From positions 20,225 through 84,224 of the forward strand of contig JAEYOM010000123.1 in assembly GCA_023411715.1 (NCBI GenBank): a stretch of 64,000 nt of DNA, given 5' to 3'. Under the pieces are notes generated by a model that did no database searches, was not told the DNA's origin, and was given only the letters and a program-made list of their open reading frames with translations. This DNA comes from Bacillota bacterium (GTDB lineage: Bacteria > Bacillota > Clostridia > Acetivibrionales > DTU013). The position numbers and the translations under genes are program-made. Below, one piece after another: positions 38,154-61,875 of this stretch (positions within the stretch are counted from its first letter, which is position 1; every line of letters starts with the position of its first letter).

Positions 38154-39947
38154 TCAACTAAGCCTCCTCCAGCCTTTCGGGTATTGGTTTTTCAGCATGT
38201 CGCCTGTCTGTTTCGCCCAACCAAGAGTATACCCGTCCACGCAGATTGCCGTAAGACCCTTCTCCCCCTCCAGCATCAAAGTCTCGCCTTTCAGGTAGCT
38301 GCCGACTTCACGCGATCCGGCGCCCAGACTGAGAACCCGCTTGAAAGCGGAAGCGCCAAGAGCCGTCGCCATTGAATGGGAAGGTTCAAACCTGTTATCT
38401 TCAAACGTCCCCAAAAACCATCCGAATTTTGCAACCTTCAAACCGTTTAGAGACGGCGGCTGCTCCGGCAGTTGGTATAAATTACGACCCCTGATCATAT
38501 AGACGCCTTCCGGCATTTCGTTCATGTTCTCTTTTACAAACTCCCTGAAGCTTTCCGGCAGATCATCGTATGAAAGTACCTCTTCCCATTGCATATCTGA
38601 ACCTATTACCTTGCAGAAAGAATCCGGCGGCATGACATTATGGCAACAGATCTGCCCCGGATCTGCCTGATGACCGGCAAAATCCTCATTATTGCACGGA
38701 TCACCCGTGTTTCCCGTGTTGTCTGAATTACCCGTATTGCCCGTGTTGTCCGTGTTGCCCGTGTTGTCCGGATTGTCCGAAGCATCCCCCATTTTGACCA
38801 GCTTTGCAACGAAATGCCCCTCTCCCCTGACTCTATGCGGCCACAGTCTTGCCACCCTGGTAAAGTCATCGGCAACTTCGGATCGAATATTGTTGTAAGT
38901 AAGCCCGATACCGTTGCCGCTATTTTCCCGGCTGTTACCGCTATTCACCCAGCTGTTGCCGCCATTTTCCCGGCTGTTGCTGCTATTTACCTGCCCACTG
39001 CCGTTATTTTCCCGGCTGTTGCCGCTATTTACCTGCCCACAGCCGTTATTTTCCCGGCTGTTGCCGCTGCCTGTTGAACCGCCGCCAGCAGCGCCTACGT
39101 TGACCCATTGAGGCCTTCCGCCTTCAATGCCGGCAATTTTGGGTATCTCTACCAGTCTATAACCGGGATGCTCACGTAAAAAGCCGGCAATCATCCTCTC
39201 ATCTTCTTCTGGTGAAAACGTGCAGGTAGAATAGACCAGTGTGCCGCCCGGCTTCAGCAGCTTGTCGGCGCTGCGCAGGATAGGTTCCTGCAGTTTGGTG
39301 CAGCGCTCGCATTTGAAGCTCTCCCAGCTTCTGGCCGCCGCTTCGTCCTTTCTGAACATGCCCTCTCCGGAACATGGCGCGTCGATCAATATACGGTCAA
39401 AATAACCCTCAAAATTATGCAGCAGTTTCTCTGGCGATTCATTTAGAACTATCGCATTTTTAACGCCGCATAGTTCAATATTTTTCACAAGTGCCTTCAC
39501 ACGTTCGGCGTTGATATCGTTGGAGACCAGCAAACCTTTTCCCTTCATCGCGGCCGCAATCTGTACGGTTTTACCGCCGGGAGCCGCACACAGATCAAGT
39601 ATCCTCTCGCCGGGCTGTGCGCCGAGTATCTGTCCCGGCAGCATCGCGCTTGGTTCCTGTATATAATAGAGCCCCGCATGGTAATACGGATGCCTTCCAG
39701 GGGTATCCTCCCCCGATATGTAGAAGCCGTCCTCTGTCCAAGGCACAGGTTCGAGCTCGAAAGGCGAAAGCTTATTAAATTCCCCAACTCCGATTTTCAG
39801 CCTGTTCACTCGCAGCCCGTACTGCCTATCCCCATTCAAGGCCTCGATAAATTCACTGTATTCTCTTTCTCCGAGCAGGCCAAGCATTTTTTCCTTAAAT
39901 GCCACCGGAAGCTTCACTCTTTTATCCTCCTGTATATGCGGTGTCAA
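38154..39947 (-). CDS. RsmB/RsmF (NOL1/NOP2/Sun) family rRNA m5C methyltransferase with a roughly 130-aa low-complexity repeat insertion
   Basis: ...ILDLCAAPGGKT..., ...FDRILIDAPCSGEGMFRK... and ...LVYSTCTFSPEE... are the catalytic Cys motifs. A PUA-like C-terminal domain is present. The insert carries 7-aa GNSRENN/GxGQVNS units and DNTGNTG units. Confidence 0.9.
   Translation of the reverse strand: MTPHIQEDKRVKLPVAFKEKMLGLLGEREYSEFIEALNGDRQYGLRVNRLKIGVGEFNKLSPFELEPVPWTEDGFYISGEDTPGRHPYYHAGLYYIQEPSAMLPGQILGAQPGERILDLCAAPGGKTVQIAAAMKGKGLLVSNDINAERVKALVKNIELCGVKNAIVLNESPEKLLHNFEGYFDRILIDAPCSGEGMFRKDEAAARSWESFKCERCTKLQEPILRSADKLLKPGGTLVYSTCTFSPEEDERMIAGFLREHPGYRLVEIPKIAGIEGGRPQWVNVGAAGGGSTGSGNSRENNGCGQVNSGNSRENNGSGQVNSSNSRENGGNSWVNSGNSRENSGNGIGLTYNNIRSEVADDFTRVARLWPHRVRGEGHFVAKLVKMGDASDNPDNTGNTDNTGNTGNSDNTGNTGDPCNNEDFAGHQADPGQICCHNVMPPDSFCKVIGSDMQWEEVLSYDDLPESFREFVKENMNEMPEGVYMIRGRNLYQLPEQPPSLNGLKVAKFGWFLGTFEDNRFEPSHSMATALGASAFKRVLSLGAGSREVGSYLKGETLMLEGEKGLTAICVDGYTLGWAKQTGDMLKNQYPKGWRRLS
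38701..38780 (-). repeat. 9/18-nt tandem coding repeats (CCCGTGTTG-type; encode NTGNTDNTG...)
   Basis: Read directly: cccgtgtttcccgtgttgtc...cccgtattgcccgtgttgtccgtgttgcccgtgttgtcc. Confidence 0.85.
38911..39070 (-). repeat. about 7.5 x 21-nt tandem coding repeats alternating two unit types
   Basis: CCGTTATTTTCCCGGCTGTTG alternates with CCGCTATTTACCTGCCCACWG. These encode alternating GNSRENN and GxGQVNS heptads. Confidence 0.9.
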
Positions 39948-43646: not shown

Positions 43647-43907
43647 TTAATTTTTTGTTTCAGGTTCGAACTCGATAATTTCGTCTTCAACTTCTTTTTT
43701 TGCATTATCGTCGATATTAAGTACTTGCTTGGCCTTTTTCTTAGCTCTGCGCCAAACAATGCCTGCTGCTGCACCAACTGCAATCACAATGCCGGCAACA
43801 GCCTGTATTGTGTACGTCATAATTGATGGATCGATATACGCCAAAGCATTGCTCTCAAACAGAAACAGTAAACAAACGGCATAAAATAATACACGAAGTT
43901 TTTTCAT
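43647..43907 (-). CDS. small secreted/membrane protein of unknown function (86 aa)
   Basis: AGGAG precedes the ATG at 43907. The signal peptide is MKKLRVLFYAVCLLFLFESNALA. It is followed by YIDPS, a TM helix, the basic cluster WRRAKKKAK and an acidic tail. This is the last gene of the phosphonate operon. Confidence 0.55.
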   Translation of the reverse strand: MKKLRVLFYAVCLLFLFESNALAYIDPSIMTYTIQAVAGIVIAVGAAAGIVWRRAKKKAKQVLNIDDNAKKEVEDEIIEFEPETKN

Positions 43908-44017: not shown

Positions 44018-45157
44018 TTATAAAGCCTGCCGCAAAATATCAATTACGTCCGCTTTTGTAAATATTATTGGGTTATTGTCCATCCTTCCCTGAGTAAAAG
44101 TTTTCTCTGCTATAAAATCCAGATCTCTTTCAGTAATTCCAAAAGTTGATAACTTAAGGTCCATAACAGGTACCGATACATCTTTCAGCCATTTATTAAA
44201 TTCGTCTTTATTACCAAATATAGAATATATCCGACTAATTTCCGGTACTGCTGATTCGTTATGCTCTGCAACCTGCGCAATCGTAAGTGCGACTGCCAGG
44301 CCATGCTCTACTCCAAAGCACAGCGTTAGCGGATAAGATATGGAATGGCTTGCTGTAGTTCTGGTAATTGAAAAAGCCAGACCAGCAAGCAGCGAAGCCA
44401 GGCACATTCCCTGTCTCAGCTTTAAGTTACTACTATCTTTCAATACCTCAGGCAGGTATTCCTTAACGTAATCGATTGCTGATATTGCAATTGCCTGTGA
44501 TAACGGAGTTTTGCTCCTGGACCAAAAAGACTCCATTGCATGTGAAAGTGCATCCAATCCCGTAGAAAGTGTCAATCTGCCCGTCATCGTCGCAGTAAAT
44601 TCAGGAACCAGTAACGCCGCCTTCGGAAATATCTGAACACAATCCACTGATAGCTTTTCCTTATTTTCAAAATCCCAGACAGTTGCCCATTTTGTAACTT
44701 CTGAACCCGTTCCGGATGTGGTCGGCAAGGCAATAATATCGATAAAATAGTGTCCTAAAAGGTATTCCTTATTTTTTATGGCGTTGTATACTGATTGCTT
44801 CGACAGCATATCTGGCGGTATCAAAGAATACAAGGCACTAATGGCTTTTGCCAGATCAATACAGCTTCCGCCTCCTATTGCAATGATCTGATCAATTTGT
44901 ACTCCCTGCAGGTATTTCAAGCTTTCAAAGACGTCCGAAACCGAAGGGTTGGCCGGAATGCTATTTAAGTGGATAAGCTTACCGGACTTTTTCGTCTCTG
45001 ACAACCATTTATCCATTCCAGTTCTGTTCAGCATACCTTCACTAGCCAGTAGAAGGGTTTTATCCGTTCCTGATACCGCCTCATTTATATACTCTACAGC
45101 TTCTCCCCGAGTCAATATAGAGATTTCGACCGGTGAAAACGGCATATATTGTTTCAT
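44018..45157 (-). CDS. iron-containing (group III) alcohol dehydrogenase; by context a phosphonoacetaldehyde reductase
   Basis: ...IIAIGGGSCIDLAKA... is the Fe-ADH GGGS motif. Conserved His residues appear in ...LSHAMESFWS... and ...ASHSISYPLT.... It lies immediately downstream of pepM/ppd. Confidence 0.75.
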   Translation of the reverse strand: MKQYMPFSPVEISILTRGEAVEYINEAVSGTDKTLLLASEGMLNRTGMDKWLSETKKSGKLIHLNSIPANPSVSDVFESLKYLQGVQIDQIIAIGGGSCIDLAKAISALYSLIPPDMLSKQSVYNAIKNKEYLLGHYFIDIIALPTTSGTGSEVTKWATVWDFENKEKLSVDCVQIFPKAALLVPEFTATMTGRLTLSTGLDALSHAMESFWSRSKTPLSQAIAISAIDYVKEYLPEVLKDSSNLKLRQGMCLASLLAGLAFSITRTTASHSISYPLTLCFGVEHGLAVALTIAQVAEHNESAVPEISRIYSIFGNKDEFNKWLKDVSVPVMDLKLSTFGITERDLDFIAEKTFTQGRMDNNPIIFTKADVIDILRQAL

Positions 45158-45172: not shown

Positions 45173-46465
45173 TTACTCGTTAGGAATCAATGTTAGTATT
45201 TTTTTGATTGGCATGCAGTATTCATCTGCTTCCAAAGATCTCGAGTTCGCAAGGATGGTTTCTGCAACCTTCTGCATCGCAGGGAACGCGCTTCTTAAAA
45301 GATGATTGGCATGTATAACAATATTTGCACCAGCTGCTGCCAGCTCTTCTTCAGTAATGCTGTTATACATTGTCGGAACTACGACTATCGGGATCAATTG
45401 ATTTGTCTTGCGAAATCTCCTGCAAAACTCCAAGATTTCGTCAGACTCTTTCCTGCATGAATGGATCATGATGCCGTCTACCCCGGCATCTACATAAGCG
45501 AGACATCTCTTAAGCGCATCTTCTATTCCCTTATCCAATATAAGGCTTTCACATCTGGCGATGATCATGAAATCCTTTGTTTTCAAAGCATTTTTACCAG
45601 CCCTGATCTTTTCACAAAAGTTTTCAATAGTTTCCTGTACTTGCTGAGCCTCGGTACCGAATAGAGAATTCTTTTTCAAACCTGTTTTGTCTTCGATTAT
45701 TACTGCCGAAACACCTATTCTTTCAAGTGTTCTTATATTGAAAATAAAATGCTCGGTAAGCCCACCTGTATCCCCGTCAAGTATAATGGGCTTTGTTGTT
45801 ACCTCCATGATTTCTTCCAGAGTATTGATCCTTGATGTCATGTCGACCAATTCTATATCAGGTTTACCTTTCGCCGTCGAATCGCAAAGGCTGGAGACCC
45901 AAATGGCGTCGAATTGCTTTATACCTTTTGGAGTCTCAACCTTGGTTTGTTCCACTATCAAACCTGTTAATCCATTGTGCGCTTCAAGCACGGAAAGACA
46001 TGGCTTATATTGCAGCAGCTTTTTTAACCTTGAACGACGGTTTTCAGGCATGTAAAGTTTCTGATCCAGGCTGCTCAGGGTTTCCTCCGTAGGGGTATGG
46101 GTATAAGGAAATTCAACCAGTTTACCCCCCCAGCCTCTTAAAACTTCAATTACTCTTTCTCGTATTCCGGCCTGATAACCCGTTATCCAATCATCCCCAT
46201 GTACAACAATATCCGGTTTTAACTGGTTCAGAACATCATCATACTCCAATTTGTCCTGAATCACCACATTTGACACACCTTTTATGTTTTGATACATTTG
46301 TATACGCTCATCCAACGGAATCAGGGGGTAGCGTTTGAATGTGGCAATCACTTCATCTGTCAGCACCCCGACAGTGAGTTCGCCCAGTTTTGAAGCGGCT
46401 TGTATGATATTCATATGGCCGTTATGGATGATATCCGTGCTGAAACACATATATACTTTTCCCAT
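45173..46465 (-). CDS. pepM: bifunctional cytidylyltransferase-like domain + phosphoenolpyruvate phosphomutase
   Basis: The N-terminus is MGKVYMCFSTDIIHNGHMNII (HxGH nucleotidyltransferase motif, TagD/ECT-like). The C-terminal domain has ...VLEAHNGLTGLIVEQ... and ...IWVSSLCDSTAKGKPDIE..., an ICL/PEP-mutase fold with the PepM-type EAHNGL motif. Confidence 0.85.
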   Translation of the reverse strand: MGKVYMCFSTDIIHNGHMNIIQAASKLGELTVGVLTDEVIATFKRYPLIPLDERIQMYQNIKGVSNVVIQDKLEYDDVLNQLKPDIVVHGDDWITGYQAGIRERVIEVLRGWGGKLVEFPYTHTPTEETLSSLDQKLYMPENRRSRLKKLLQYKPCLSVLEAHNGLTGLIVEQTKVETPKGIKQFDAIWVSSLCDSTAKGKPDIELVDMTSRINTLEEIMEVTTKPIILDGDTGGLTEHFIFNIRTLERIGVSAVIIEDKTGLKKNSLFGTEAQQVQETIENFCEKIRAGKNALKTKDFMIIARCESLILDKGIEDALKRCLAYVDAGVDGIMIHSCRKESDEILEFCRRFRKTNQLIPIVVVPTMYNSITEEELAAAGANIVIHANHLLRSAFPAMQKVAETILANSRSLEADEYCMPIKKILTLIPNE

Positions 46466-47196
46466 TACTCGTCCCCCATATCAAAAAGTTTTTGGAATCT
46501 TTCTGAAATAACCTTCAGGTCTTGCAAATTATCTATTTCATTACATAGCCTTCGGTTCAACTCCATCGGGTATAACCCTATTTGGTCACTGATCCCGTTA
46601 AGGGCATTTTCAGCATAAACTTTTGTAATACCAGCTTTGCAAAAAGCCTCAATCTCATTCATCCATAAAGCGAAATCTGTTTTGTTCAACTTATATGCCG
46701 GCTGGCAAGCTTCGCAGTCATCTCCGAAAAACTCTATTCCTACCGCTTTGATCTTATTGTTATTTATTTTTGCTTTAAAATCCTTTTCCGGCAGAAGAAG
46801 CAATCTATCGACCGCCACCACACTGCTTTTTGAATATAACAGGTCCGTAATAACAGATGGTTCCAATACAAGATCACCATGCAAAAGTAAAATATCATCA
46901 TTTAAAAACTCCTTTGCAAGGTACATTGAATAAATATAATTGGTATCTTTATAAACAGGGTTATTTATGAATGTAATATCTAAACCGTAGGAACCAGTCA
47001 GTGCATGTCCCTTTAGCAATTCCTCAAATGGGCCTGTTGTGATTACGACTTTTTTGATCCCGTTTCTTCGAATCAGTTCCAACTGCCAGCTGATAATGCT
47101 GTAACCATTTCCGATCGGACACATACACTTGGTTTTATCTTCAGTCAGCTTACCCATCCTGCTTCCTAGCCCGGAGTTTAAAAGCAATGCTTTCAC
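46465..47196 (-). CDS. LicC/MobA-like nucleotidyltransferase (probable phospho(no)-alcohol cytidylyltransferase)
   Basis: MKALLLNSGLGSRMGKLTEDKTKCM matches the G-x-G-(T/S)-R nucleotide-binding signature. 243 aa. Confidence 0.75.
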   Translation of the reverse strand: MKALLLNSGLGSRMGKLTEDKTKCMCPIGNGYSIISWQLELIRRNGIKKVVITTGPFEELLKGHALTGSYGLDITFINNPVYKDTNYIYSMYLAKEFLNDDILLLHGDLVLEPSVITDLLYSKSSVVAVDRLLLLPEKDFKAKINNNKIKAVGIEFFGDDCEACQPAYKLNKTDFALWMNEIEAFCKAGITKVYAENALNGISDQIGLYPMELNRRLCNEIDNLQDLKVISERFQKLFDMGDE

Positions 47197-47200
47197 GAGG

Positions 47201-48337
47201 TTATTTCCCCTCTCTGATAAATCTCATAAGTGCATCTTTATTTTCCTTAGGCGTTGTAGTCGGCCTGCCTAAATCATCCCTTGAGCCGAGAGCCACCAGT
47301 ATTTCTATAAAGCATATCCCCTGAACTTCCATGGCAGATCTGAGCACTTTCCGGAGTTCTGTCTGATCCGAAGCCCTGAAGCAGTTATTATATCCTGCTG
47401 CTTTGGCAAGTTCACAAAAATTGGTATTACCATATGCAACCGGCATACCGCCGACACTTTCATGTGCGCCATTATTGAAAACTATATGAACAAGGTTTTT
47501 GCATCCCGTTTTTGCCAAAATAACCGTACTACCCAAATGCATTATTGCGGCGCCATCGCCTTCTATACACCACACGCGCCTGTCCGGTGCTTCCATCGCT
47601 ATCCCCATGGCAATCATGGATGCATGTCCCATGGACCCTACAGTAAGAAAATCTTTTTCATGCCCCAGTTTCAAAGCCTCTCGGAGCTCAAACAATTCAC
47701 GCGAGGTCTTACCTGTAGTGGATACGAAAATATCCGTATCATCTGCAATTGTTATAATTGTCCTAAGTGCATCTTCCCGCTTCATCAAGTAATTATTTCC
47801 ATAATGAGGCGCGGCATCTGTCTCCAATGCACCCTTTCGAACGATGAAAGCTATACTCTTCCCCTCGGAAATAGTCGTCCTGCTCTCTTGGACAAATTTT
47901 AAAAATTCTTCCTGTTCCGTTTCCTTCGAAAGAATAAGGTATTTGATTTTCATTAATTCAAGAAGTTCTATCGTGACTTCGCCTTGAAAAGCATGCTGAG
48001 GCTCATCCTTGATTCCGGGTTCACCGCGCCAGCCTACTACGAAAACACAGGGAATTCCATATACCTTCTCATCCAATAAAGATGCCACAGGATTGATGAT
48101 ATTACCGATCCCGCTATTCTGAAGATATACCAAAGCAGGTCTTCCGGTGGCTATATAATGTCCGGAAGCCAGTCCGACTGCAGCACCTTCGTTAGCCGTA
48201 ACGACATGCCTATCACCCAGTTTATATTTCTCAAATAGAGTATTGCATAAAGCCTTAAGCTGGGAGTCCGGAACACCTGCATAATAATCTACTCCCAAGT
48301 ATTTTTGTAGAGTCTCCAAAAGCCAATCAATTTTCAT
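47201..48337 (-). CDS. ppd: phosphonopyruvate decarboxylase (ThDP-dependent)
   Basis: 378 aa. The ThDP motif is ...IEGDGAAIMHLGSTVILAKTGCKNLVHIVFNNGAHES.... Its size and its position beside pepM are characteristic. Confidence 0.85.
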   Translation of the reverse strand: MKIDWLLETLQKYLGVDYYAGVPDSQLKALCNTLFEKYKLGDRHVVTANEGAAVGLASGHYIATGRPALVYLQNSGIGNIINPVASLLDEKVYGIPCVFVVGWRGEPGIKDEPQHAFQGEVTIELLELMKIKYLILSKETEQEEFLKFVQESRTTISEGKSIAFIVRKGALETDAAPHYGNNYLMKREDALRTIITIADDTDIFVSTTGKTSRELFELREALKLGHEKDFLTVGSMGHASMIAMGIAMEAPDRRVWCIEGDGAAIMHLGSTVILAKTGCKNLVHIVFNNGAHESVGGMPVAYGNTNFCELAKAAGYNNCFRASDQTELRKVLRSAMEVQGICFIEILVALGSRDDLGRPTTTPKENKDALMRFIREGK

Positions 48338-50225
48338 TCCTATGCTCCCCTATTTCCTTTAATCTTCCAATAAGATATTTCCCGCCAACTTCTCCGCTGC
48401 TGCCAAAATTCGCAATATATTTTTCTACTATTGCAGTTATCTCTTCTCTATATTTTTCTGAAGAACTAAGCAGCCTTCTAATTTTATCCGGCAAATTTTC
48501 TAGATTGTCAGGTTCCATTTGAATACCGATCTTATCTCGGAGCAGAATTTCCAGCGGCTTTACAGAAAGTCTGTCGTACTCCGGATTGTTTATTTTGGGC
48601 GGTGTATTGATAAACACCGACGGTTTTTTTGTCACAAATGAAAACTCATATGCTGTACCTGACCAGTCAGTTATTACAACATCGGAATCAAATATGGAAT
48701 TATTGCTCGTAAAATCAAGTTCAAAACTCAGGTCTCCTCCGCCATATTCCCTATATCTGTCTACAATGGCATCCATCCGGTTGCCATATCGTTTTACATA
48801 CTCGGGATGCGGACGTACAACAACCTCAAAGCCTTGTCCCAAAAGAGCCTTAAGCAACTCATCAATGCAGCTGTCCAAAATATTATCCTGCTGCCATGAA
48901 GGCGCAACCAATATTTTTTTATGTAACCGGATCGACTCTCTCATCCTGCTATAACTCTCATATAGTTTCTCCAATTGTCCGTATCCTACGGCAATAAGCT
49001 TTTTCTCACGCAAATCATAGAGCTTTTCAGTCTCACGGATTTCGTCGAATTGGAATTCACCGACACAAAAGATGGTATCATAGTAGTTCAATGCTCCTTT
49101 ACGCAGCACCATATGAGTACTTAAGGGGTAATGGAACATATAAACGTATTCGATATCCTTTTTGACGTATGAACGCTTAATGTGAAAATTATTTAAGTCC
49201 GGCATGGTCATGACAACCATGTCAGCATCCATCTTCATCATCAAGGTGATAAAGCGCTTTTCACCAATGTAGTAGGGCTTGATACGGGGTTGGATCTTGG
49301 ATAGCTCAAATATTTGGTCGCCTGGATCGCTGGTAATGTAGTGTATCGTAACATTCGACCTTCGCAATATATCATTTATAACATTTTCGAAATATTTATA
49401 AAATCCGCTCTTTTCCGAATAGAATACCAAATGCTTGTTGACGATTGAAAAGAAACGTTTATAATCCGCTTTTTCGCGCTTCCTGTTGGGATCTTTCTCG
49501 TGCCAATTTTTCTTGCCAGCACTGCCTATACTGTTCAATTCCTTTAAAGTATACTTGCTCTTTTCCAGATCGTCATAGTCGACATACTTCCGAGGCGGTA
49601 TTATCGCATTTAAAAAAAGTTGCTGTAAAATGGTGAAAAGATTACTGCATATCCAATACAGGCCAACGCCGACTGAAACGAACATTCCAAGTAACAGAGA
49701 AATACCGACTGAAACCGCCATCGTGGAGATCTGGCTGATTCTATTTTGTTCTCTCTGCAATGGATTGATCCTGTCCTGGATGGTAGAAAGTATAAACGCT
49801 GATATACCGGCTGTCAGGGGCATAAGTAACGAAATTCCCTTCTCCTCGATAGGAATCAGTGCAAGGCTTGTACCCCCAAGGCTTTCATTGACAATACGAA
49901 TTAGTGCAATCAATAGAATGATTTGAATAAACATAGGTATAACACTGGCAAAAGCGTGATACTTTTCTCGTTTGTATAAACCATGCTGTTCCTCTGCTAT
50001 ACTGTCCCCGTCACCAAAGTATTTTACCATTATTCGATTCAACTCAGGCATCAGGTGAACCATTTTAATACTGTTTCTATGAACCCAGATAGATAGCGGA
50101 AGTAAAATTATTTTGGTTAACAGGGTGAACAGGATTATTGTTAAAGAATAATCATGTAGCATATCATAGCATACTTGCATTATATAACCAAGTATTTTGG
50201 TCAGTATTGATATTAGTGAATTCAT
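48327..50225 (-). CDS. fusion protein: YidC/Oxa1-type membrane insertase domain + TagB/TagF-type (CDP-alcohol) phosphotransferase domain
   Basis: Residues 1 to about 215 carry ...SLTIILFTLLTKIILLPLSIWVHRNSIKM...IPMFIQIILLIAL...VGVGLYWICSNLFTILQQLFLN..., which are YidC hallmarks. Residues from about 270 to 632 carry ...KILVAPSWQQ..., ...VVVRPHPEY... and ...DVVITDWSGTAYEFSFVTKKPSVFINTP..., a TagF-like Glyphos_transf pattern. It is one uninterrupted 632-aa ORF. Confidence 0.8.
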   Translation of the reverse strand: MNSLISILTKILGYIMQVCYDMLHDYSLTIILFTLLTKIILLPLSIWVHRNSIKMVHLMPELNRIMVKYFGDGDSIAEEQHGLYKREKYHAFASVIPMFIQIILLIALIRIVNESLGGTSLALIPIEEKGISLLMPLTAGISAFILSTIQDRINPLQREQNRISQISTMAVSVGISLLLGMFVSVGVGLYWICSNLFTILQQLFLNAIIPPRKYVDYDDLEKSKYTLKELNSIGSAGKKNWHEKDPNRKREKADYKRFFSIVNKHLVFYSEKSGFYKYFENVINDILRRSNVTIHYITSDPGDQIFELSKIQPRIKPYYIGEKRFITLMMKMDADMVVMTMPDLNNFHIKRSYVKKDIEYVYMFHYPLSTHMVLRKGALNYYDTIFCVGEFQFDEIRETEKLYDLREKKLIAVGYGQLEKLYESYSRMRESIRLHKKILVAPSWQQDNILDSCIDELLKALLGQGFEVVVRPHPEYVKRYGNRMDAIVDRYREYGGGDLSFELDFTSNNSIFDSDVVITDWSGTAYEFSFVTKKPSVFINTPPKINNPEYDRLSVKPLEILLRDKIGIQMEPDNLENLPDKIRRLLSSSEKYREEITAIVEKYIANFGSSGEVGGKYLIGRLKEIGEHRNEN

Positions 50226-50337: not shown

Positions 50338-51240
50338 TTAGCTTATTTTATTAGTTGCCGGATCATAGTGTACGGAATATGTCGCTTTTTGAAATGTGCC
50401 CGCATCTTCAATAATGACCGTGCATGTTGAATTTTTTAACTTTTCTTGGGGAATAGTCACTTTGAAGCCACTGCTAAAATACTTTTGATTTTTAAAATTT
50501 TGTGATACATCAGGTCTTTCATAGCTTATTGTATCATATGTTTGAATTTCGCCATCGTTATTCTTGAATTCCAAATAAACATTTTGGAACAGTGTCGAGT
50601 GATTATTCACATAGGCCCATCCGTCCAAAATAACATTTCCATCAGCTTGAGTCGGGGCTATAGCAAACCAGACATTATCAGATTTATTTGTATCATCAAT
50701 ATTTTTAACCTGACCTGGAGTATATTCTCTTAAGCCTTTATTGTCCTTTATATATTTCCTTCCGGTTCTTGCCAAACCACTGCTGTAATCATTTTCCCAA
50801 TCATAAATAAGTAATTCATAAATACCATTTTTCATATTCAATGTTGAGAATTGTGTGCCGAACCCGTTATTATCGCCTTTGACCGTTAGCTCTGGGAAAA
50901 CTGATTTCAATTGGAATGAGGTCAGTTTGGCCGGGGCTATATAAGAATCATTTGAGCCTCTGAAAATAATACTTATTTTTTTATCAGAATTCAGATCTGC
51001 TGTTTCACAAAATGCCCAACCATTACAAGCAAAATCTTCTGCCATGTTTTCATATGCTTTTGAAAATCCTATGGCTTGATAAGCATCTGTATTTATAATC
51101 AAAGAACTTATCTCAGTTTTTTCCAGTTTTGCACTGCCTGATAATAGTATGATTACGTCGTTTGCATAAATTAAATAAATTATAAATAAAATCAGAGAAG
51201 CTATATAAATTATACTCCTCTTTTTAGATTTAATATTCAT
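50338..51240 (-). CDS. membrane-anchored protein of unknown function with two related beta-rich modules
   Basis: An N-terminal TM helix (IIYIASLILFIIYLIY). Two modules start ...CNGWAFCE... and ...LDGWAYVN.... ATGA overlap with the upstream gene. Confidence 0.5.
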   Translation of the reverse strand: MNIKSKKRSIIYIASLILFIIYLIYANDVIILLSGSAKLEKTEISSLIINTDAYQAIGFSKAYENMAEDFACNGWAFCETADLNSDKKISIIFRGSNDSYIAPAKLTSFQLKSVFPELTVKGDNNGFGTQFSTLNMKNGIYELLIYDWENDYSSGLARTGRKYIKDNKGLREYTPGQVKNIDDTNKSDNVWFAIAPTQADGNVILDGWAYVNNHSTLFQNVYLEFKNNDGEIQTYDTISYERPDVSQNFKNQKYFSSGFKVTIPQEKLKNSTCTVIIEDAGTFQKATYSVHYDPATNKIS

Positions 51241-52652
51241 TGGTTCGGTACCTCCACAGTTGGGAGATTAATGTTGAATAGCTTGCCAATCACTAACCTT
51301 GCCGTATTAACACCCGATTGATCTTTTATCTCATCGAACCTTTCATCCATATAATAAACTGCATTAAGAATATTACGCGCGTCAATATTTTCTACAATTG
51401 AATTACTGTTATTATCTTGAGTCCATCTTGCACTATGATCAGATTGTAAAATTATAATTGATTTAGGATCGTTTTTTATAACGTGCTTGATTGTTTCATC
51501 AGCGAGCTTCGTAATATACTTGTATTGATTCAAGTAATAATTATGATCTTTCCAGTCGCTGAGGCCAGCGAAATCAGGCATTTTACCATTTTCATCGAAT
51601 ACAAATGGTGCATGCGGGCTTTCGATGTGAGCGTATGTTAAAACTGGAACATCGCTATTTTCATTTGTTTCCTGAAGTTGATTGAAAGCATTTATTACAT
51701 TCTGACGATTTGCTAATTCATCACTTACACCCAGGAAGGGATAAAACATAGTATTTTCAAGCAATATTTTTGTAAAATCACCATAGCGGGCATTTACTTT
51801 ATTTTTTGCCCCTCCCACCACTCCATTCCATGTTATAAGGGATGACATATTGACAATTTCGTAGCCGTGATTGCTGAATAAACGGAACATCTCTGGATTT
51901 TGTCCGTAAGATAACCGTTTAGCTTGAATCATATTGTCTGTGACGACATAATTCAAATTGACAATATTCGTTGTAATTGTTATAGTATCGATACTTTCAT
52001 TATGACTTCCTAATGAAACGTTGAATCCCTCATTTTCCAGTGTCTGAGCAAAACCCGAATTATCATACACATAATATTTTTTAATGGAGTTAAAACTTGA
52101 ATATTCATCGAGTATTATATAATATACATTTGGATATAGTTTTTTTTCTGCAAACTTGGTATCGATTTTTGTTTTGTTATCAACCAATTTTGTTTTTTCT
52201 ATAATCGTTGGCATAGCAATAAGAAAATTAAGCAGAATAAGTGCACAAAATGCAATAGTAGTTACCATGTTAAATATTTTAGCTATTTCTACATTCATTT
52301 TTTTGTAAATCAGATAAGCAAAATGCAAAAATACAACGATCAATATCGGAGCTATATGCCAATATTTTAAAGGCATAAATAACTTAACGACTTTTTCGAT
52401 CAATACATAATTCAGAAACAATAACATAAATATGTTAACGATTAAGGCTGTTTTATTTGTATCTCTTACAAATAAGTAAAATATAAAACTTAGGATAATA
52501 GCTATACCAATAAAAATTATAAGAGGGTAAAGCATTTCATTTGCTGAAGTTTCGCCCACATTTTGGGTGTATAGAAAGATAATTGGGAAAACGGATAAAG
52601 CAAAAACAGAAAAGGTAGGGATAAGAATATCTTTTTTCTTATTGGTATACAA
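51237..52652 (-). CDS. LtaS/sulfatase-like (alkaline-phosphatase superfamily) polytopic membrane protein
   Basis: About 5 N-terminal TM helices, then an extracytoplasmic domain with ...YYIILDEYSS..., ...HIESPHAPF... and ...ILQSDHSAR... (metal/nucleophile-type motifs). The family assignment rests on pattern only. Confidence 0.55.
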   Translation of the reverse strand: MYTNKKKDILIPTFSVFALSVFPIIFLYTQNVGETSANEMLYPLIIFIGIAIILSFIFYLFVRDTNKTALIVNIFMLLFLNYVLIEKVVKLFMPLKYWHIAPILIVVFLHFAYLIYKKMNVEIAKIFNMVTTIAFCALILLNFLIAMPTIIEKTKLVDNKTKIDTKFAEKKLYPNVYYIILDEYSSFNSIKKYYVYDNSGFAQTLENEGFNVSLGSHNESIDTITITTNIVNLNYVVTDNMIQAKRLSYGQNPEMFRLFSNHGYEIVNMSSLITWNGVVGGAKNKVNARYGDFTKILLENTMFYPFLGVSDELANRQNVINAFNQLQETNENSDVPVLTYAHIESPHAPFVFDENGKMPDFAGLSDWKDHNYYLNQYKYITKLADETIKHVIKNDPKSIIILQSDHSARWTQDNNSNSIVENIDARNILNAVYYMDERFDEIKDQSGVNTARLVIGKLFNINLPTVEVPNQ

Positions 52653-56697: not shown

Positions 56698-58530
56698 CTA
56701 TATTTTAAACTTAATGTTTCGACCGAATATTTTCCACCATACGGTGTTTTCTATTAGCTTTCTTTGAAGTTGATAATCCAGGATCTTTTCTTCCATATCG
56801 TCGATCACTTTATCTTTCCTATCATTCTCTTCCTTCAACTTTGTATATTCAGCACTTAATCTGTCAGCATCCGCCATGATCATAGAATAATGGTTTTTCA
56901 GTTCTTTATAACTATTCTCCATCTCACCATATGTTATTTCTTTCCTTTCGTTATTCTCTTTCAGTTCCAGGTACTCTTTTCGGATATTCTTAGCATCTGT
57001 CTCGACCAGAGAATAACGTTCCTGTAACTCCTTATAACCATTCTCCAGTTCGCCATATGTTATCTCTTTACTGTCGTTATACTCTTTCAGTTCCAGGTAT
57101 TCTTTTCGGATATTTTTAGCATCTGTCTCGACTAAAGCATATTTCTTTTGTAATTCCTTGTAGTCGGATTCCAAGTTGGAATAACTTTTTTGGATGTGCT
57201 TGGTATAGTATTCAAGCGAAACGTACTGTTCCTTTAACTTAGAATAAGCTTCCTTCGATTCGTTATTTATATCAGAACAGACAAACCACATATTTTTTTC
57301 GTAATCTAAGATTTCCTGTTCTATCAATTGCATCAGCAACTGTTTTGATTTATCGTCCAGCAATGTGGCCTTTTCCGATAAGAAAACGCCTCTGGAAACC
57401 ATTTGAATCTGTTCATTACTGCAGATTCTTTTTTCTATCAAGTAGTCGTAAGCCGCTTCTTGCGTTACTATTATTTTTCTAAAAAAATTCGATTTAGTAA
57501 CCCTGCGCAATAGCTTGTCTGAATCAGGGTTGTTTAGCTTGAAGGTTCCTTCAGTACATAATTCGAAAATGAAAGGTATTTGATTCTGTTCGATCGATTC
57601 TATCAGGAGATTATTATCGAATGAGCAAAAATAGGCAAGTTTAGCCTGTATTGTTTCAGGAAGTCTGTATCCGTTCCAATTGGTTTTTTCATGTCCTATG
57701 CCCGGATTATATTCAAGATATTCAGTAAATCCGCTATTGTTAAAAGTACATATCTGGTAAGGAAAAGTATCATCAACAATTACAAGATCAACTGGATCCC
57801 ACGAATTTTTTAAACTAGAGTAGATCTGCACACCGGACCTAATTATTTTATCTTTATTTGACACATTTTCAGTATTATCTTTTGTTTTGTCAGCTATTAA
57901 TATAATTCCGTAATTATCTGTTTCAAAAACAGGTATATATTTTTCCTTAGCCTTTTTATAAACAATACTCACACTAGGCCAATCAATGTCATCGAAAATT
58001 ATAATACCACCATTTCGAACCAACGGAATGTAATTTATGGCATCCGACTCTACAAACGATGTATCATGATTTCCATCAATATGGAGCATGTCGATTTCAA
58101 TACCGTTTTTAATAAAAAAATCCACCGATCCCTCAGATGTATCTCTGATAAGATCAACTATATTATCAAACCCAAAACGGCCCTTCAAATAAGCAACTTC
58201 CTGATAAAGCCTTTCAAAATTCAGAGTAGATGTAGCTTCTTCAACATATTTTTTAACTGTATCAACCGCGTTTTTCTCATCAAGGCAGCTTGCTAGGTAT
58301 GGATCAATACCATATGCCTTTCCGCCGTTTTCCTTTATAGCAACTGAGACAGAATATAGACTCTTTCCCCTGTATACTCCGATTTCAACATAATTTTTAA
58401 ACTTGCATTCCTTAAAAATATATGCCATCAGAAAGCATTTATCGAGACTGCCTCCGCCTAATATATCAGCATATATGCTGTCATAAATACTTTTTACTTT
58501 ATTATAAAACTCCTGCATGGGTAGGCTCAA
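56698..58530 (-). CDS. class I SAM-dependent methyltransferase (Methyltransf_24-like) + uncharacterised middle domain + C-terminal coiled coil built from 42-aa repeats
   Basis: The N-terminus has ...YVEIGVYRGKSLYS..., ...LHIDGNHD... and ...GGIIIFDDIDW.... The C-terminus has KNIRKEYLELKE(Y/N)N(D/E)(S/R)KEITYGE(L/M)EN(G/S)YKEL... twice plus degenerate copies, with heptad-like spacing. Confidence 0.8.
   Translation of the reverse strand: MSLPMQEFYNKVKSIYDSIYADILGGGSLDKCFLMAYIFKECKFKNYVEIGVYRGKSLYSVSVAIKENGGKAYGIDPYLASCLDEKNAVDTVKKYVEEATSTLNFERLYQEVAYLKGRFGFDNIVDLIRDTSEGSVDFFIKNGIEIDMLHIDGNHDTSFVESDAINYIPLVRNGGIIIFDDIDWPSVSIVYKKAKEKYIPVFETDNYGIILIADKTKDNTENVSNKDKIIRSGVQIYSSLKNSWDPVDLVIVDDTFPYQICTFNNSGFTEYLEYNPGIGHEKTNWNGYRLPETIQAKLAYFCSFDNNLLIESIEQNQIPFIFELCTEGTFKLNNPDSDKLLRRVTKSNFFRKIIVTQEAAYDYLIEKRICSNEQIQMVSRGVFLSEKATLLDDKSKQLLMQLIEQEILDYEKNMWFVCSDINNESKEAYSKLKEQYVSLEYYTKHIQKSYSNLESDYKELQKKYALVETDAKNIRKEYLELKEYNDSKEITYGELENGYKELQERYSLVETDAKNIRKEYLELKENNERKEITYGEMENSYKELKNHYSMIMADADRLSAEYTKLKEENDRKDKVIDDMEEKILDYQLQRKLIENTVWWKIFGRNIKFKI
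56914..57165 (-). repeat. 2 x 126-bp tandem coding repeat (plus degenerate flanking copies)
   Basis: 56914-57039 and 57040-57165 align by eye with few substitutions. 126 nt corresponds to 42 aa. Confidence 0.85.
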
Positions 58531-60429: not shown

Positions 60430-61875
60430 CTATATTTTTAATATAAACTTATCCTGCGATTTTTTAAAAATCAATATCCCAGCTATCAGCGGTATAAACG
60501 CAGCTATTATGCAAAACAGATAAGCTTGGGGTTCGGGTGAAACTCCATCAAGCATAATAGTCCTGGTAAACCTGATAAAATGATAAAGCGGGTTCATTTT
60601 AAACAATGGTAACAGTTGCTGTGGCAGAATACTCTCAGGGTAAAAAATCGGTGTCGCATACATCCATAATACACTAATCACATTCCAAAGGAATTGTGTA
60701 TCCCTAAAATATACCATCGCCGCCGATAAAATGAAACTCAGTCCTATGCATAACACAACAGTACAAATAATGCTGAATGGTAAAAGCAAAAGTGCCGGTC
60801 TTATAGGTGCATGCGTTACTAATGCTGCAATAAATAACGGAATCATCGATATTAGGAAATTAATTACAGATGATAAAACTCTTGAAACAGGGAAAATATA
60901 TTTTGGAATATATACTTTCGTGATCAACGATGTATTGCCGATAATCGACATTAATCCCATACTTGTCGCCTCAGAGAAAAAGCTGAAAAACACTATTCCA
61001 ATTAACAAGTAAACCACGAAATTAGGTATATGGTTATTGAACAGTGTAGAAAAAATAATATATTGGACTAACATTGTCAGAAGGGGATTGAGAAAACTCC
61101 ACAGCACTCCCAGTACGGAACGTTTATACTTAGTTTTAAAATCTCTGGCGACCAGTTGCTTTAATAAGAAGCTGTAACGGGTAAAGTTCATTATTACTGT
61201 CAGGGTCAAGCTCCTTCTATTTTTTTTCTGTTTATTGATAAGTACCATGGAGTAAATGGCAAACAGTATTCCTAAGATACTCATTATTACCCAGTAATAA
61301 CGTCCAAAACCGATATTATTGCGCCCATAATAACTTACGCATAAAGTACCTTTCTGCTTTTGACCGTTTATATTTAATACTCCACCGCCCGAAAAAACAC
61401 TTTTCTGATCATACCATACAGAAATTGTATTGCCTGGCGTACCGGCAGGGACATTCAGAACCAACCCTATTTCTTTTCCTTTTACCGATTTGATCGGGGA
61501 GTTAAGTGCAATGCTGCTGTATGCATTGTCCGAAAGCTCGGAAAATGATACATTTTTCTGTCCCAGGAGTTTTCCGCTCAATATATCTACCAGCTTTAGT
61601 TCCAGTGTACCTTGCTCATGTATCCCGCCAGTCGAAGATAAAATAGATATGGCTTCTATTTCATCCGTCGCCGGAATAAATGTCTGCGTAACTACGATAT
61701 CCTTCGTCATTTCTCCGATAGGAATGGTCGACGAATCAGTCCCCTTATATTCGATCAAGGCTGAATGTTTTAGCGCTTCTCCGCCTATAAAATAAAAACA
61801 GACTACGACAATTATATAAATGAATAAAGAAACAATACATCCCTGTTTTAAAGTCAGTCGCTTATTAATCTTCAT
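60430..61875 (-). CDS. ABC-2 type polysaccharide export permease (Wzm/TagG-like) with an N-terminal TM-domain-TM extension of about 215 aa
   Basis: The C-terminal half has ...LLKQLVARDFKTKYKRSVLGVLWSFLNPLL... (ABC-2 entry motif) plus 6 TM helices. The N-terminal half has one TM helix, about 170 aa of beta-rich sequence, then a second TM helix. Confidence 0.85.
   Translation of the reverse strand: MKINKRLTLKQGCIVSLFIYIIVVVCFYFIGGEALKHSALIEYKGTDSSTIPIGEMTKDIVVTQTFIPATDEIEAISILSSTGGIHEQGTLELKLVDILSGKLLGQKNVSFSELSDNAYSSIALNSPIKSVKGKEIGLVLNVPAGTPGNTISVWYDQKSVFSGGGVLNINGQKQKGTLCVSYYGRNNIGFGRYYWVIMSILGILFAIYSMVLINKQKKNRRSLTLTVIMNFTRYSFLLKQLVARDFKTKYKRSVLGVLWSFLNPLLTMLVQYIIFSTLFNNHIPNFVVYLLIGIVFFSFFSEATSMGLMSIIGNTSLITKVYIPKYIFPVSRVLSSVINFLISMIPLFIAALVTHAPIRPALLLLPFSIICTVVLCIGLSFILSAAMVYFRDTQFLWNVISVLWMYATPIFYPESILPQQLLPLFKMNPLYHFIRFTRTIMLDGVSPEPQAYLFCIIAAFIPLIAGILIFKKSQDKFILKI

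Follow-up and report, generated by a model that had tools for sequence, protein, structure and literature searches.

TagF-family enzymes use CDP donors on membrane-bound acceptors such as lipid-linked glycopolymers at the cytoplasmic face of the membrane (PMC10901376). LtaS and GacH draw a head group from a membrane lipid through a threonine intermediate, releasing diacylglycerol; in the case of GacH the polymer so decorated is an extracellular rhamnose polysaccharide (10.1101/337519). Purified E. coli YidC, for its part, scrambles glycerophospholipids (PMC11047089). The transfer of phosphonates that follows their activation with CMP has earlier been attributed to LicD-like enzymes or termed enigmatic, and later phosphonate tailoring steps have been described as enigmatic (PMC6697681). 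This report concerns a 64,000 nt stretch of contig JAEYOM010000123.1 from a Bacillota bacterium (assembly GCA_023411715.1), hereafter the window, to whose full length all positions refer, and within it a minus-strand gene (48327..50225) that joins a YidC/Oxa1-like membrane domain to a TagF-like phosphotransferase domain.

This YidC–TagF fusion probably belongs to a system in which TagF-like and LtaS-like transferases draw on nucleotide-activated head groups, phosphonates or phospho-alcohols, to decorate envelope glycans. Its surroundings are those of a recurrent module: a variable head-group cassette together with the TagF-like phosphotransferase, the YidC-fold domain, a small membrane protein that we call the YIDPS microprotein after its motif, and an extracellular LtaS/EptA-like transferase. 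Each domain belongs to a known superfamily; what seems new is the YidC–TagF architecture and the four-part module, neither of which is described in the searchable literature, and two phosphonate genomics papers, one of them PMC8942020, make no mention of YidC or TagF. We propose tentatively, at slightly short of an even chance, that the fusion is the cytoplasm-facing part of a conserved cell-envelope decoration module that works as a trans-membrane relay to a rhamnose polysaccharide.

The fusion protein

The gene begins with ATG behind an AAGGTG ribosome-binding site and runs for 632 codons with no internal stop. A preliminary description had proposed a single 632-aa polypeptide at this place, and the intact reading frame bears it out. 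All the motifs it quoted are found (LLTKIILLPLS, VGLYWICSNLFTILQQ, APSW, RPHP, ITDWSGTAYEF and KKPSVF). The two domains share one frame in 80 of 80 genome loci, which rules out a missed stop, a frameshift or an assembly artefact. The protein is laid out as follows.

49581..50225, minus strand: YidC/Oxa1-like membrane domain, aa 1-215 (PF02096, TIGR03592, matches to YidC in the PDB)
49440..49580, minus strand: interdomain linker, aa 216-262, basic, with AlphaFold2 pLDDT below 50 at aa 235-240
48327..49439, minus strand: TagF-like GT-B phosphotransferase domain, aa 263-632 plus the stop codon (PF04464, Foldseek, motifs)

The YidC-like nature of the N-terminal domain, claimed earlier, is confirmed by a full-length match to PF02096 (60KD_IMP), which spans aa 26-206 and model positions 1-162 of 163 (E 2.5e-31, 109 bits against a cutoff of 35), and by YidC matches in the PDB, where phmmer finds B. 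halodurans YidC2 (3WO6/3WO7, E ~1e-11, aligned end to end) and E. coli YidC. The NCBIfam model TIGR03592 also passes its cutoff of 84.3, with 91 bits. The domain consists of an N-terminal amphipathic helix, a first transmembrane (TM) helix carrying the groove residue Lys38, the cytoplasmic C1 hairpin and TM2-TM5. The helices of the AlphaFold2 model (26-40, 42-68 and 73-86, 95-115, 130-153, 162-182 and 185-208) and the alignment with YidC2 fit a core of five TMs in which a cytoplasmic coiled-coil hairpin joins TM1 to TM2.

Lys38 (LLTKIILLPL) aligns with the groove Arg72 of YidC2 and R366 of E. coli YidC (tiLIRlaLLPL and tfIVRgiMYPL, respectively). Of the groove arginine to which the preliminary description pointed, the positive charge is retained and the residue itself is not. 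The same holds for the family, in which the position is Lys in 131 and Arg in 5 of 136 readable loci, so that the charge is kept and the canonical Arg mostly replaced. Q101 and N195 are further residues assigned to the groove. With YidC, SpoIIIJ and YidC2 (Oxa1 superfamily, PF02096) the fusion shares the complete five-TM core, the C1 hairpin, the positive groove residue and the N-out/C-in topology, which is independently implied by a domain order described below. Unlike these insertases, it has Lys for Arg in the great majority of loci, carries an enzyme domain in place of the C-terminal tail, lacks a lipoprotein or N-terminal TM segment and is encoded in envelope-glycan operons.

The TagF-like C-terminal domain, also claimed earlier, is upheld by Pfam and by fold. 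PF04464 (Glyphos_transf) passes its cutoff of 22.1 bits with 29.9 (E 3.7e-7), aligning aa 400-540 with model positions 150-293 of 367, and relatives of the fusion match the model over positions 11-294. In a Foldseek search the AlphaFold2 model of the fusion (pLDDT 85.7, built on 30 homologues) finds TagF 3L7K first (E 4e-10, TM-score 0.54 normalised to target) and then other GT-B enzymes. A profile of the C-domain family has no significant match among PDB sequences; the domain is therefore a very divergent member, and its link with TagF rests on Pfam, fold and motifs.

Among 50 divergent representatives H365, R471-P-H473-P, D520-W-S and E527 are at least 95% conserved, and APSW and ITDWSG are further conserved motifs. 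H365 stands in F364-H365-Y-P367-L368 after the strand 359-363 and compares with W443-H444..P447-L448 of TagF, while H473 stands in R471-P-H473-P after the strand 466-470 and compares with TagF H584; both comparisons are by motif and position. The catalytic histidines are H444 and H584 in TagF and H300 and H433 in TarL, and in both enzymes the loop after the catalytic histidine selects the donor polyol, glycerol or ribitol (PMC10901376). H365 is the predicted catalytic base of the fusion, and Y-P367-L368 its putative head-group loop. Counted in long-flank loci only and uncorrected for shared ancestry, the loop H-[YA]-P-L after the histidine occurs in 12 loci with pepM, the phosphoenolpyruvate (PEP) mutase gene, versus 4 without it, and other loops (e.g., PHDMMS or PHGMDS) in 8 versus 38. 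This covariation fits a domain that would bind the head group of a nucleotide-activated donor.

The enzyme domain is at least as conserved as the membrane domain: over the same 50 representatives, the mean frequency of the top residue is 0.55 in the TagF-like domain, 0.50 in the YidC domain and 0.42 in the linker. In common with TagF, TagB and TarL (PF04464), the fusion has the GT-B fold, a Pfam match above cutoff and an association with cytidylyltransferase genes, and, at the level of motifs, an aromatic-His motif with its P-L loop and a second histidine in R-P-H-P. It differs from them in its great divergence, with no PDB relative by profile, in being membrane-integral through the YidC domain where the TagF family has monotopic amphipathic helices, and in the predicted donor of the window fusion, a CMP-phosphonate. 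Unlike teichoic-acid primases and polymerases, it is constantly paired with an extracellular LtaS-like enzyme and a microprotein.

The operon and its predicted donor

Eight minus-strand genes, running from 52652 down to 43647 with overlaps or short gaps, form the operon. Those other than the fusion are listed here.

51237..52652, minus strand: LtaS/EptA-like membrane enzyme, 471 aa (AlphaFold2, Foldseek, homologues with PF00884)
50338..51240, minus strand: unassigned 300-aa protein, with an N-terminal TM segment and then a predicted extracellular region
47201..48337, minus strand: Ppd, phosphonopyruvate decarboxylase (TIGR03297, 458 bits against a cutoff of 312.5)
46465..47196, minus strand: LicC/PntC-like nucleotidyltransferase, 243 aa (PF00483, PF12804)
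45173..46465, minus strand: Fom1-like cytidylyltransferase–PEP mutase (PF01467 at aa 11-102, PF13714, TIGR02320 at 410 bits)
44018..45157, minus strand: Fe-dependent alcohol dehydrogenase (Fe-ADH), PhpC/FomC type (PF00465, PF25137)
43647..43907, minus strand: YIDPS microprotein, 86 aa, last gene of the operon (HMM E 6e-16)

The fusion had been placed directly between ppd and an LtaS-like gene. This is right on the side of ppd, which overlaps the fusion's stop by 11 nt, and wrong on the other side, where the 300-aa open reading frame (ORF) intervenes, overlapping the LtaS-like gene by 4 nt. The 300-aa protein has no match in Pfam or NCBIfam; weak homologues (24-30% identity, some duplicated to ~450 aa) accompany a window-type LtaS-like gene in 4-5 loci.

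The phosphonate setting that had been proposed for this window stands, and the operon is predicted to make CMP-2-hydroxyethylphosphonate (CMP-HEP). PhpC-type Fe-ADHs reduce phosphonoacetaldehyde to 2-hydroxyethylphosphonate (HEP) (PMC8942020), and the cytidylyltransferase domain of Fom1 (PF01467) turns HEP into CMP-HEP (PMC6697681). Because the operon encodes enzymes of both types, CMP-HEP is the donor predicted from homology. The best NCBIfam match of the dehydrogenase is Phn_Fe-ADH, at 241 bits, which is below the model cutoff. No 2-aminoethylphosphonate (AEP) transaminase is present in the operon. In most loci that have pepM, the LicC/PntC-like gene stands between it and the fusion. The window shares with the Pnt/Fom1-type pathways of phosphonoglycan and phosphonolipid clusters its PF01467-PepM fusion, Ppd, Fe-ADH and LicC/PntC-like enzyme; the transfer step, attributed there to LicD-like enzymes or called enigmatic, has here a TagF-like candidate, and the predicted product is HEP rather than AEP.

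The region from 40.6 to 64 kb encodes RmlB/RmlD-type enzymes, an ABC-2 transporter pair, GT2 glycosyltransferases, a Bac_transf priming enzyme, an acetyltransferase, an aminotransferase and an acyltransferase, and is, judged by this gene content, a rhamnose-containing wall-polysaccharide cluster of the ABC-transporter type. A second yidC gene was looked for in the window and none was found.

Distribution and genomic neighbours of the family

The best 120 database homologues of the fusion are 580-700 aa long, and nearly all have both Pfam domains. Homologues are publicly named 'membrane protein insertase YidC' or 'CDP-glycerol glycerophosphotransferase family protein'. A HMMER search of 1.84 billion cluster representatives gives 586 matches at E<=1e-30, and a scan of one genome per species finds the fusion encoded in the genomes of at least 564 species. 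Carriers belong mainly to the Lachnospiraceae, Oscillospiraceae, Christensenellales and Eggerthellaceae/Coriobacteriaceae. The locus closest to that of the window (L001) is in a metagenome-assembled genome (MAG) labelled 'Bacillota bacterium', at 79% identity. Exact-sequence look-ups with the window's fusion, and with a homologue (P0271) 100% identical to its LtaS-like protein, matched no contig.

Neighbours were counted in 80 genome loci and 80 metagenome loci retrieved for the family, with 159 loci serving for the microprotein and 136 for the groove residue. A narrower profile of the stand-alone homologues discussed below re-found mostly fused genes and also served in counting partners; the contexts of stand-alone genes come from exact look-ups. 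The pepM gene adjoins the fusion in 26 of the 80 genome loci, mostly those of the nearest relatives of the window protein, and in 8 of the 80 metagenome loci. A family-wide role specific to phosphonates is ruled out by these counts. The fusion occurs mostly away from pepM, which is half of what the preliminary description had said would refute it; the other half, an 'ordinary teichoic-acid primase anchor', does not describe the fusion.

Among 140 ORFs scanned as same-strand neighbours in non-pepM loci, NTP_transf_3 occurs 19 times, NTP_transferase 16 times and IspD 5 times, and several of these nucleotidyltransferases are fused to a class I/II aminotransferase. Other neighbours in these loci are choline-kinase/APH-type kinases, LicC-like and LicD proteins, GT2 glycosyltransferases and rhamnose-pathway genes. 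The neighbours differ between pepM and non-pepM loci; the variable part of the module is therefore a cassette for a nucleotide-activated small head group. The LtaS/EptA-like enzyme and the YIDPS microprotein are more constant partners of the fusion than pepM.

Some loci are of interest for their arrangement or labels. Anaerotruncus sp. G3(2012) has two divergently oriented YidC–TagF paralogues ~1.3 kb apart (L023:6796-8682, minus strand, and L023:9998-11893, plus strand), whose C-domains are ~53% identical to that of the window, and one copy stands beside a pepM cassette. Anaerotruncus sp. G3 and Gordonibacter sp. Marseille-P4307 are culturable carriers. Four loci with a Clostridia-type module (L019, L020, L060 and L063) come from MAGs whose labels are Caulobacteraceae, Planctomycetia, Paludibacteraceae and Bacteroidaceae, and in L019 the identity to the window genes is 67-85% across the cassette. 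These labels suggest binning contamination or recent horizontal transfer.

The LtaS/EptA-like partner

The LtaS-like protein of the window has no Pfam match itself, and its homologues carry PF00884. Its AlphaFold2 model (pLDDT 89.6) has five long N-terminal helices, taken as TM helices, followed by an alpha/beta extracellular domain, and in Foldseek the model finds EptC, MCR-1, EptA, LtaP and LtaS in the lead, mixed with sulfatases. D182 (YYIILDEY), T223, H347 (SPHAPF) and D405-H406 (QSDHS) are invariant or nearly so. A profile comparison with the PDB aligns the metal motifs (PNvYYiIlDeY, PHaPF, SDHg) with those of sulfatases. The D...T spacing of 41 residues resembles that of E255 and T300 in LtaS, which also has D475-H476. 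Read at the level of motifs, the partner is predicted to be a phosphotransferase with T223 as its threonine nucleophile. The CxPxR formylglycine motif is absent from the protein; this absence, the TM domain and the top folds EptC, MCR-1 and LtaS rule out a true sulfatase.

A gene for a multi-TM protein of the sulfatase fold lies within 3.5 kb of the fusion in 54 of 80 loci, mostly adjoining and on the same strand, and farther off in 6 more; 9 loci are too short to judge. In some lineages the two are one protein. Among 50 representatives of 50%-identity clusters, 32 have the architecture YidC-TagF, 8 Sulfatase-YidC-TagF, 4 YidC-TagF-microprotein-Sulfatase and 4 YidC-TagF-Sulfatase; the LtaS-like enzyme is fused to YidC–TagF in 16 of 49 cluster representatives, in two orders. 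Such larger fusions are continuous in genome DNA (L032; L038, 1408 codons; L060, 1269 codons). Both orders fit the expected topology, in which YidC is N-out/C-in and an LtaS-type enzyme is N-in with its catalytic domain outside. With the sulfatase part first, the extracellular catalytic domain would run into the N-out start of YidC, and this order independently implies the N-out/C-in topology of the YidC domain. With the sulfatase part last, the cytoplasmic TagF-like domain would lead through an in-out-in hairpin into the N-in TM domain of the LtaS-like part.

The partner resembles LtaS, GacH and EptA/MCR-1 in its five TMs, its extracellular alkaline phosphatase-fold domain, its metal-ligand motifs and its probable threonine nucleophile. 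In contrast to them, the partner is too divergent for Pfam in its window copy, comes with the YIDPS hairpin or bears it itself, and is joined, by gene linkage or by fusion, to a nucleotide-dependent transferase of the cytoplasm. This last difference suggests that its donor lipid is made to order and is not bulk phospholipid. Selenomonas pepM neighbourhoods with 'multiple sulfatases', provisionally regarded as phosphonolipid clusters (PMC8942020), may contain the same LtaS-like partners (compare L164:388-2394).

The YIDPS microprotein

The microprotein gene of the window starts with ATG at 43907, preceded by the ribosome-binding site taggag. Its product has a signal-peptide-like segment ending in ALA, a predicted mature N-terminus Y-I-D-P-S-I-M-T-Y, a TM helix, the basic cluster WRRAKKKAK and an acidic tail. 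The family follows the same pattern: a segment ending in AxA is followed by Y-[ILV]-[DN]-P-[SAGN] and a TM helix (IQAVAG), then by a basic cluster, to which an acidic tail is often added. Some copies have no signal segment and start M-x-Y-I-D-P-S. The tyrosine is invariant; the serine and threonine of the motif are not. Pfam and NCBIfam give nothing better than E 0.002, and membership of a known family is ruled out by these searches.

The family's HMM is positive in 116 of 159 loci, and 83 copies begin within 400 nt after the end of the fusion. In the window the usual succession of fusion and microprotein gene looks interrupted by the phosphonate cassette, as if by insertion. In the Coriobacteriia no separate microprotein gene is found, and the LtaS-like protein downstream begins with the same hairpin (AYA-YVDPSVMTYTIQALAG). 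A gene for signal peptidase I (S26) adjoins in nine non-pepM loci, a few hundred bases from the fusion (e.g., L043/L046:12172-12798, minus strand), and fits a cleavage between AxA and Y that would expose an N-terminal tyrosine. The topology of the microprotein is that of classical YidC-only substrates. It may belong to the LtaS-like enzyme as a subunit, serve the YidC domain as a client, or do both.

Stand-alone TagF-like homologues

The TagF-like domain also occurs on its own, as proteins of ~375-400 aa with the same motifs, and six contigs encoding them were looked up. Four of the six operons have a separate short yidC gene (199-229 aa, PF02096) along with PepM, Ppd, an Fe-ADH and the TagF-like gene; these paralogues lie at L162:4044-4709, L164:2848-3447, L165:2554-3243 and L166:4840-5517. 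Directly 5' of each is a microprotein gene (YLDP/YLNP), with stop and start overlapping, and the L164 operon has a sulfatase gene as well. The idea that YidC is here more than a membrane platform, raised in the preliminary description, gains support from these separate genes; its further suggestion, a groove that handles a lipid-linked acceptor, is conjectural. The unfused paralogues are only ~20% identical to the window's domain, and, unlike YidC insertases, have Asn for the groove residue and stay under the cutoff of TIGR03592. The occurrence of lpxC near the L166 operon indicates that the module occurs in a diderm.

Other stand-alone contexts are simpler. In L161 (Natronincola peptidivorans) the stand-alone TagF-like gene is accompanied by a phosphonate cassette and the microprotein, and 7 kb of sequence contain neither a YidC nor a sulfatase gene; in L163 and L104 the stand-alone enzyme is paired with a sulfatase-fold gene only. 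Fused and stand-alone forms interleave by similarity.

A proposed relay and its alternatives

The relay, the most economical scheme to involve every part, starts from the domain identities, the conserved linkage and fusions, the catalytic motifs and the predicted donor pathway; beyond these we infer the membrane carrier and its identity, translocation via the YidC groove, the final acceptor and the role of the microprotein. PepM, Ppd and the Fe-ADH would make HEP, which the Fom1-like cytidylyltransferase domain, the LicC-like enzyme or both would convert to CMP-HEP. At the inner face of the membrane the TagF-like domain, with His365 as base, would then transfer the phosphonyl group onto a carrier hydroxyl and release CMP. 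Such use of a CMP-phosphonate is predicted, with indirect support from the adjoining cytidylyltransferase genes and the His-loop covariation. The carrier would most simply be a lipid, diacylglycerol or a glycolipid. The hydrophilic, positive YidC groove would let the small anionic head group cross the bilayer, and the LtaS-like enzyme and the microprotein would take the group on the threonine nucleophile and pass it to the rhamnose-containing wall polysaccharide.

The Dlt pathway (DltA/C, the MBOAT protein DltB, DltX and DltD) offers a parallel. It, too, combines an activated cytoplasmic donor, a polytopic membrane protein, an outer-face tyrosine microprotein and an extracellular transferase, and the latter forms a covalent intermediate before the wall polymer is modified, which is the logic proposed for the module. 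Unlike the module, Dlt is built from unrelated protein families and performs acyl transfer rather than phosphoryl or phosphonyl transfer, and the DltX tyrosine is C-terminal where that of YIDPS is N-terminal. A shuttle role for the YIDPS tyrosine, drawn from this analogy, is pure conjecture, and a microprotein tyrosine on the outside would be hard for an enzyme in the cytoplasm to reach.

Several points weigh against the relay. Characterised TagF-family enzymes work directly on lipid-linked glycopolymers in the cytoplasm, and an ABC-transporter pathway would allow decoration before export. In 11 of 71 assessable loci no LtaS-like gene lies within 10 kb. The Asn in the groove of the separate YidC paralogues weakens a mechanism based on charge, and the simpler contexts of L161, L163 and L104, with no YidC nearby, make the YidC part dispensable in some lineages. 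The catalytic histidines are assigned by motif and secondary-structure position only, and the covariation of the loop after H365 with pepM is not corrected for phylogeny.

A more radical form of the relay has the YidC fold recruited, in hundreds of gut Clostridia and Coriobacteriia, as a dedicated trans-bilayer conduit for non-protein cargo, coupling a cytoplasmic TagF-like loader to an extracellular LtaS-like unloader, with the phosphonyl or phospho-alcohol head group borne by a lipid or by the microprotein's N-terminal tyrosine; we consider this possible, if doubtful. Were YidC instead an anchor or scaffold only, a re-used set of five helices keeping the enzyme at the membrane, perhaps beside the machinery of polysaccharide assembly or ABC export, the TagF-like domain would phosphonylate an undecaprenyl-linked polysaccharide in the cytoplasm, and the LtaS-like enzyme and microprotein would do other work. 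This would agree with the cytoplasmic-face action of known TagF-family enzymes on lipid-linked glycopolymers (PMC10901376), with the ABC-2 transporter, Bac_transf priming enzyme and GT2s of the window cluster, with the L161 phosphonate operon, in which a stand-alone TagF-like gene has no YidC or sulfatase gene in 7 kb, and with the interleaving of fused and stand-alone forms. It leaves unexplained the separate yidC paralogues of the stand-alone operons, the near-invariant groove K/R and polar TM residues, and the repeated fusion to an extracellular LtaS-like enzyme in two permutations, and we regard it as rather unlikely. The separate paralogues, a conservation near that of the enzyme domain and the K/R in all 136 of 136 groove positions argue against a passive tether.

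The YidC domain might also be a dedicated insertase or chaperone for the module's membrane parts, chiefly the YIDPS microprotein and perhaps the LtaS-like enzyme, an unlikely explanation, though one compatible with the relay. Its being fused to the TagF-like domain would then do no more than secure co-assembly, and the microprotein itself could be the shuttle, its invariant N-terminal tyrosine playing the part of that of DltX. A conserved Asp marks the short N-out tail of the microprotein, which is followed by a single TM and a basic cluster on the cytoplasmic side; some copies lack a signal peptide. This topology is of the Pf3-coat or M13-procoat type, which YidC inserts on its own. MifM, a small YidC client, is encoded upstream of yidC2 in B. 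subtilis, and in the stand-alone operons the microprotein gene is directly 5' of the separate yidC gene, with stop and start overlapping. The signal peptidase I gene adjoining in 9 loci points the same way, and the invariant tyrosine of DltX shuttles D-Ala between DltB and DltD (PMC12148441). In fused loci, however, the microprotein gene is downstream and not upstream of the fusion, and the housekeeping YidC could insert the microprotein. As a shuttle, an exposed protein carrier would be hard to return to a cytoplasmic enzyme for recharging, and the serine and threonine of the motif are not invariant. That the fusion is simply the cell's general YidC insertase with an accessory C-terminal domain is highly improbable. 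The public name of its homologues, its complete YidC core and its positive groove residue would suit such a role, but the gene stands in a polysaccharide/phosphonate operon and not in a context of the rnpA-yidC-jag type, has Lys in 131 of 136 loci where solved YidCs have Arg, occurs as two copies side by side in the L023 genome, and encodes a C-domain at least as conserved as the YidC domain.

Significance

The YidC–TagF family offers a concrete candidate transferase for an acknowledged gap, the attachment of phosphonates and phospho-head-groups to surface glycans. It abounds in Clostridia and Coriobacteriia of the human and animal gut, in which the chemistry of the cell surface shapes phage and immune interactions, and is currently mislabelled 'YidC insertase'. 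The fusion is also a natural experiment on the YidC groove: a paralogue hard-wired to a lipid-facing enzyme pair would make the physiological relevance of the scrambling recently seen in vitro testable. The YIDPS microprotein, in turn, is a new, widespread and unannotated family with a conserved extracellular motif. If the YidC domain does act as a conduit, an insertase groove would for the first time have a physiological, pathway-specific use in the translocation of small molecules or lipids, and cell-wall glycans would be seen to acquire phosphonates, phosphocholine-like groups and others by a new route.

Other features of the window

Three further minus-strand genes of the window have unusual domains or inserts. 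The ABC-2 permease of the polysaccharide exporter, at 60430..61875, has an N-terminal extension of ~235 aa, with no family match, before ABC2_membrane (aa 238-441). The 597-aa protein encoded at 38154..39947 resembles RsmB/NOP2-type methyltransferases and has two low-complexity inserts, with repeated GNSRENNG(S/C)GQVNS and NTGNTDNTG units. Finally, the 610-aa product of 56698..58530 has an N-terminal Methyltransf_24 domain, and its C-terminal half contains near-tandem repeats of ~45 aa (YGELENGYKELQERYSLVETDAKNIRKEYLELKE) that are coiled-coil-like.

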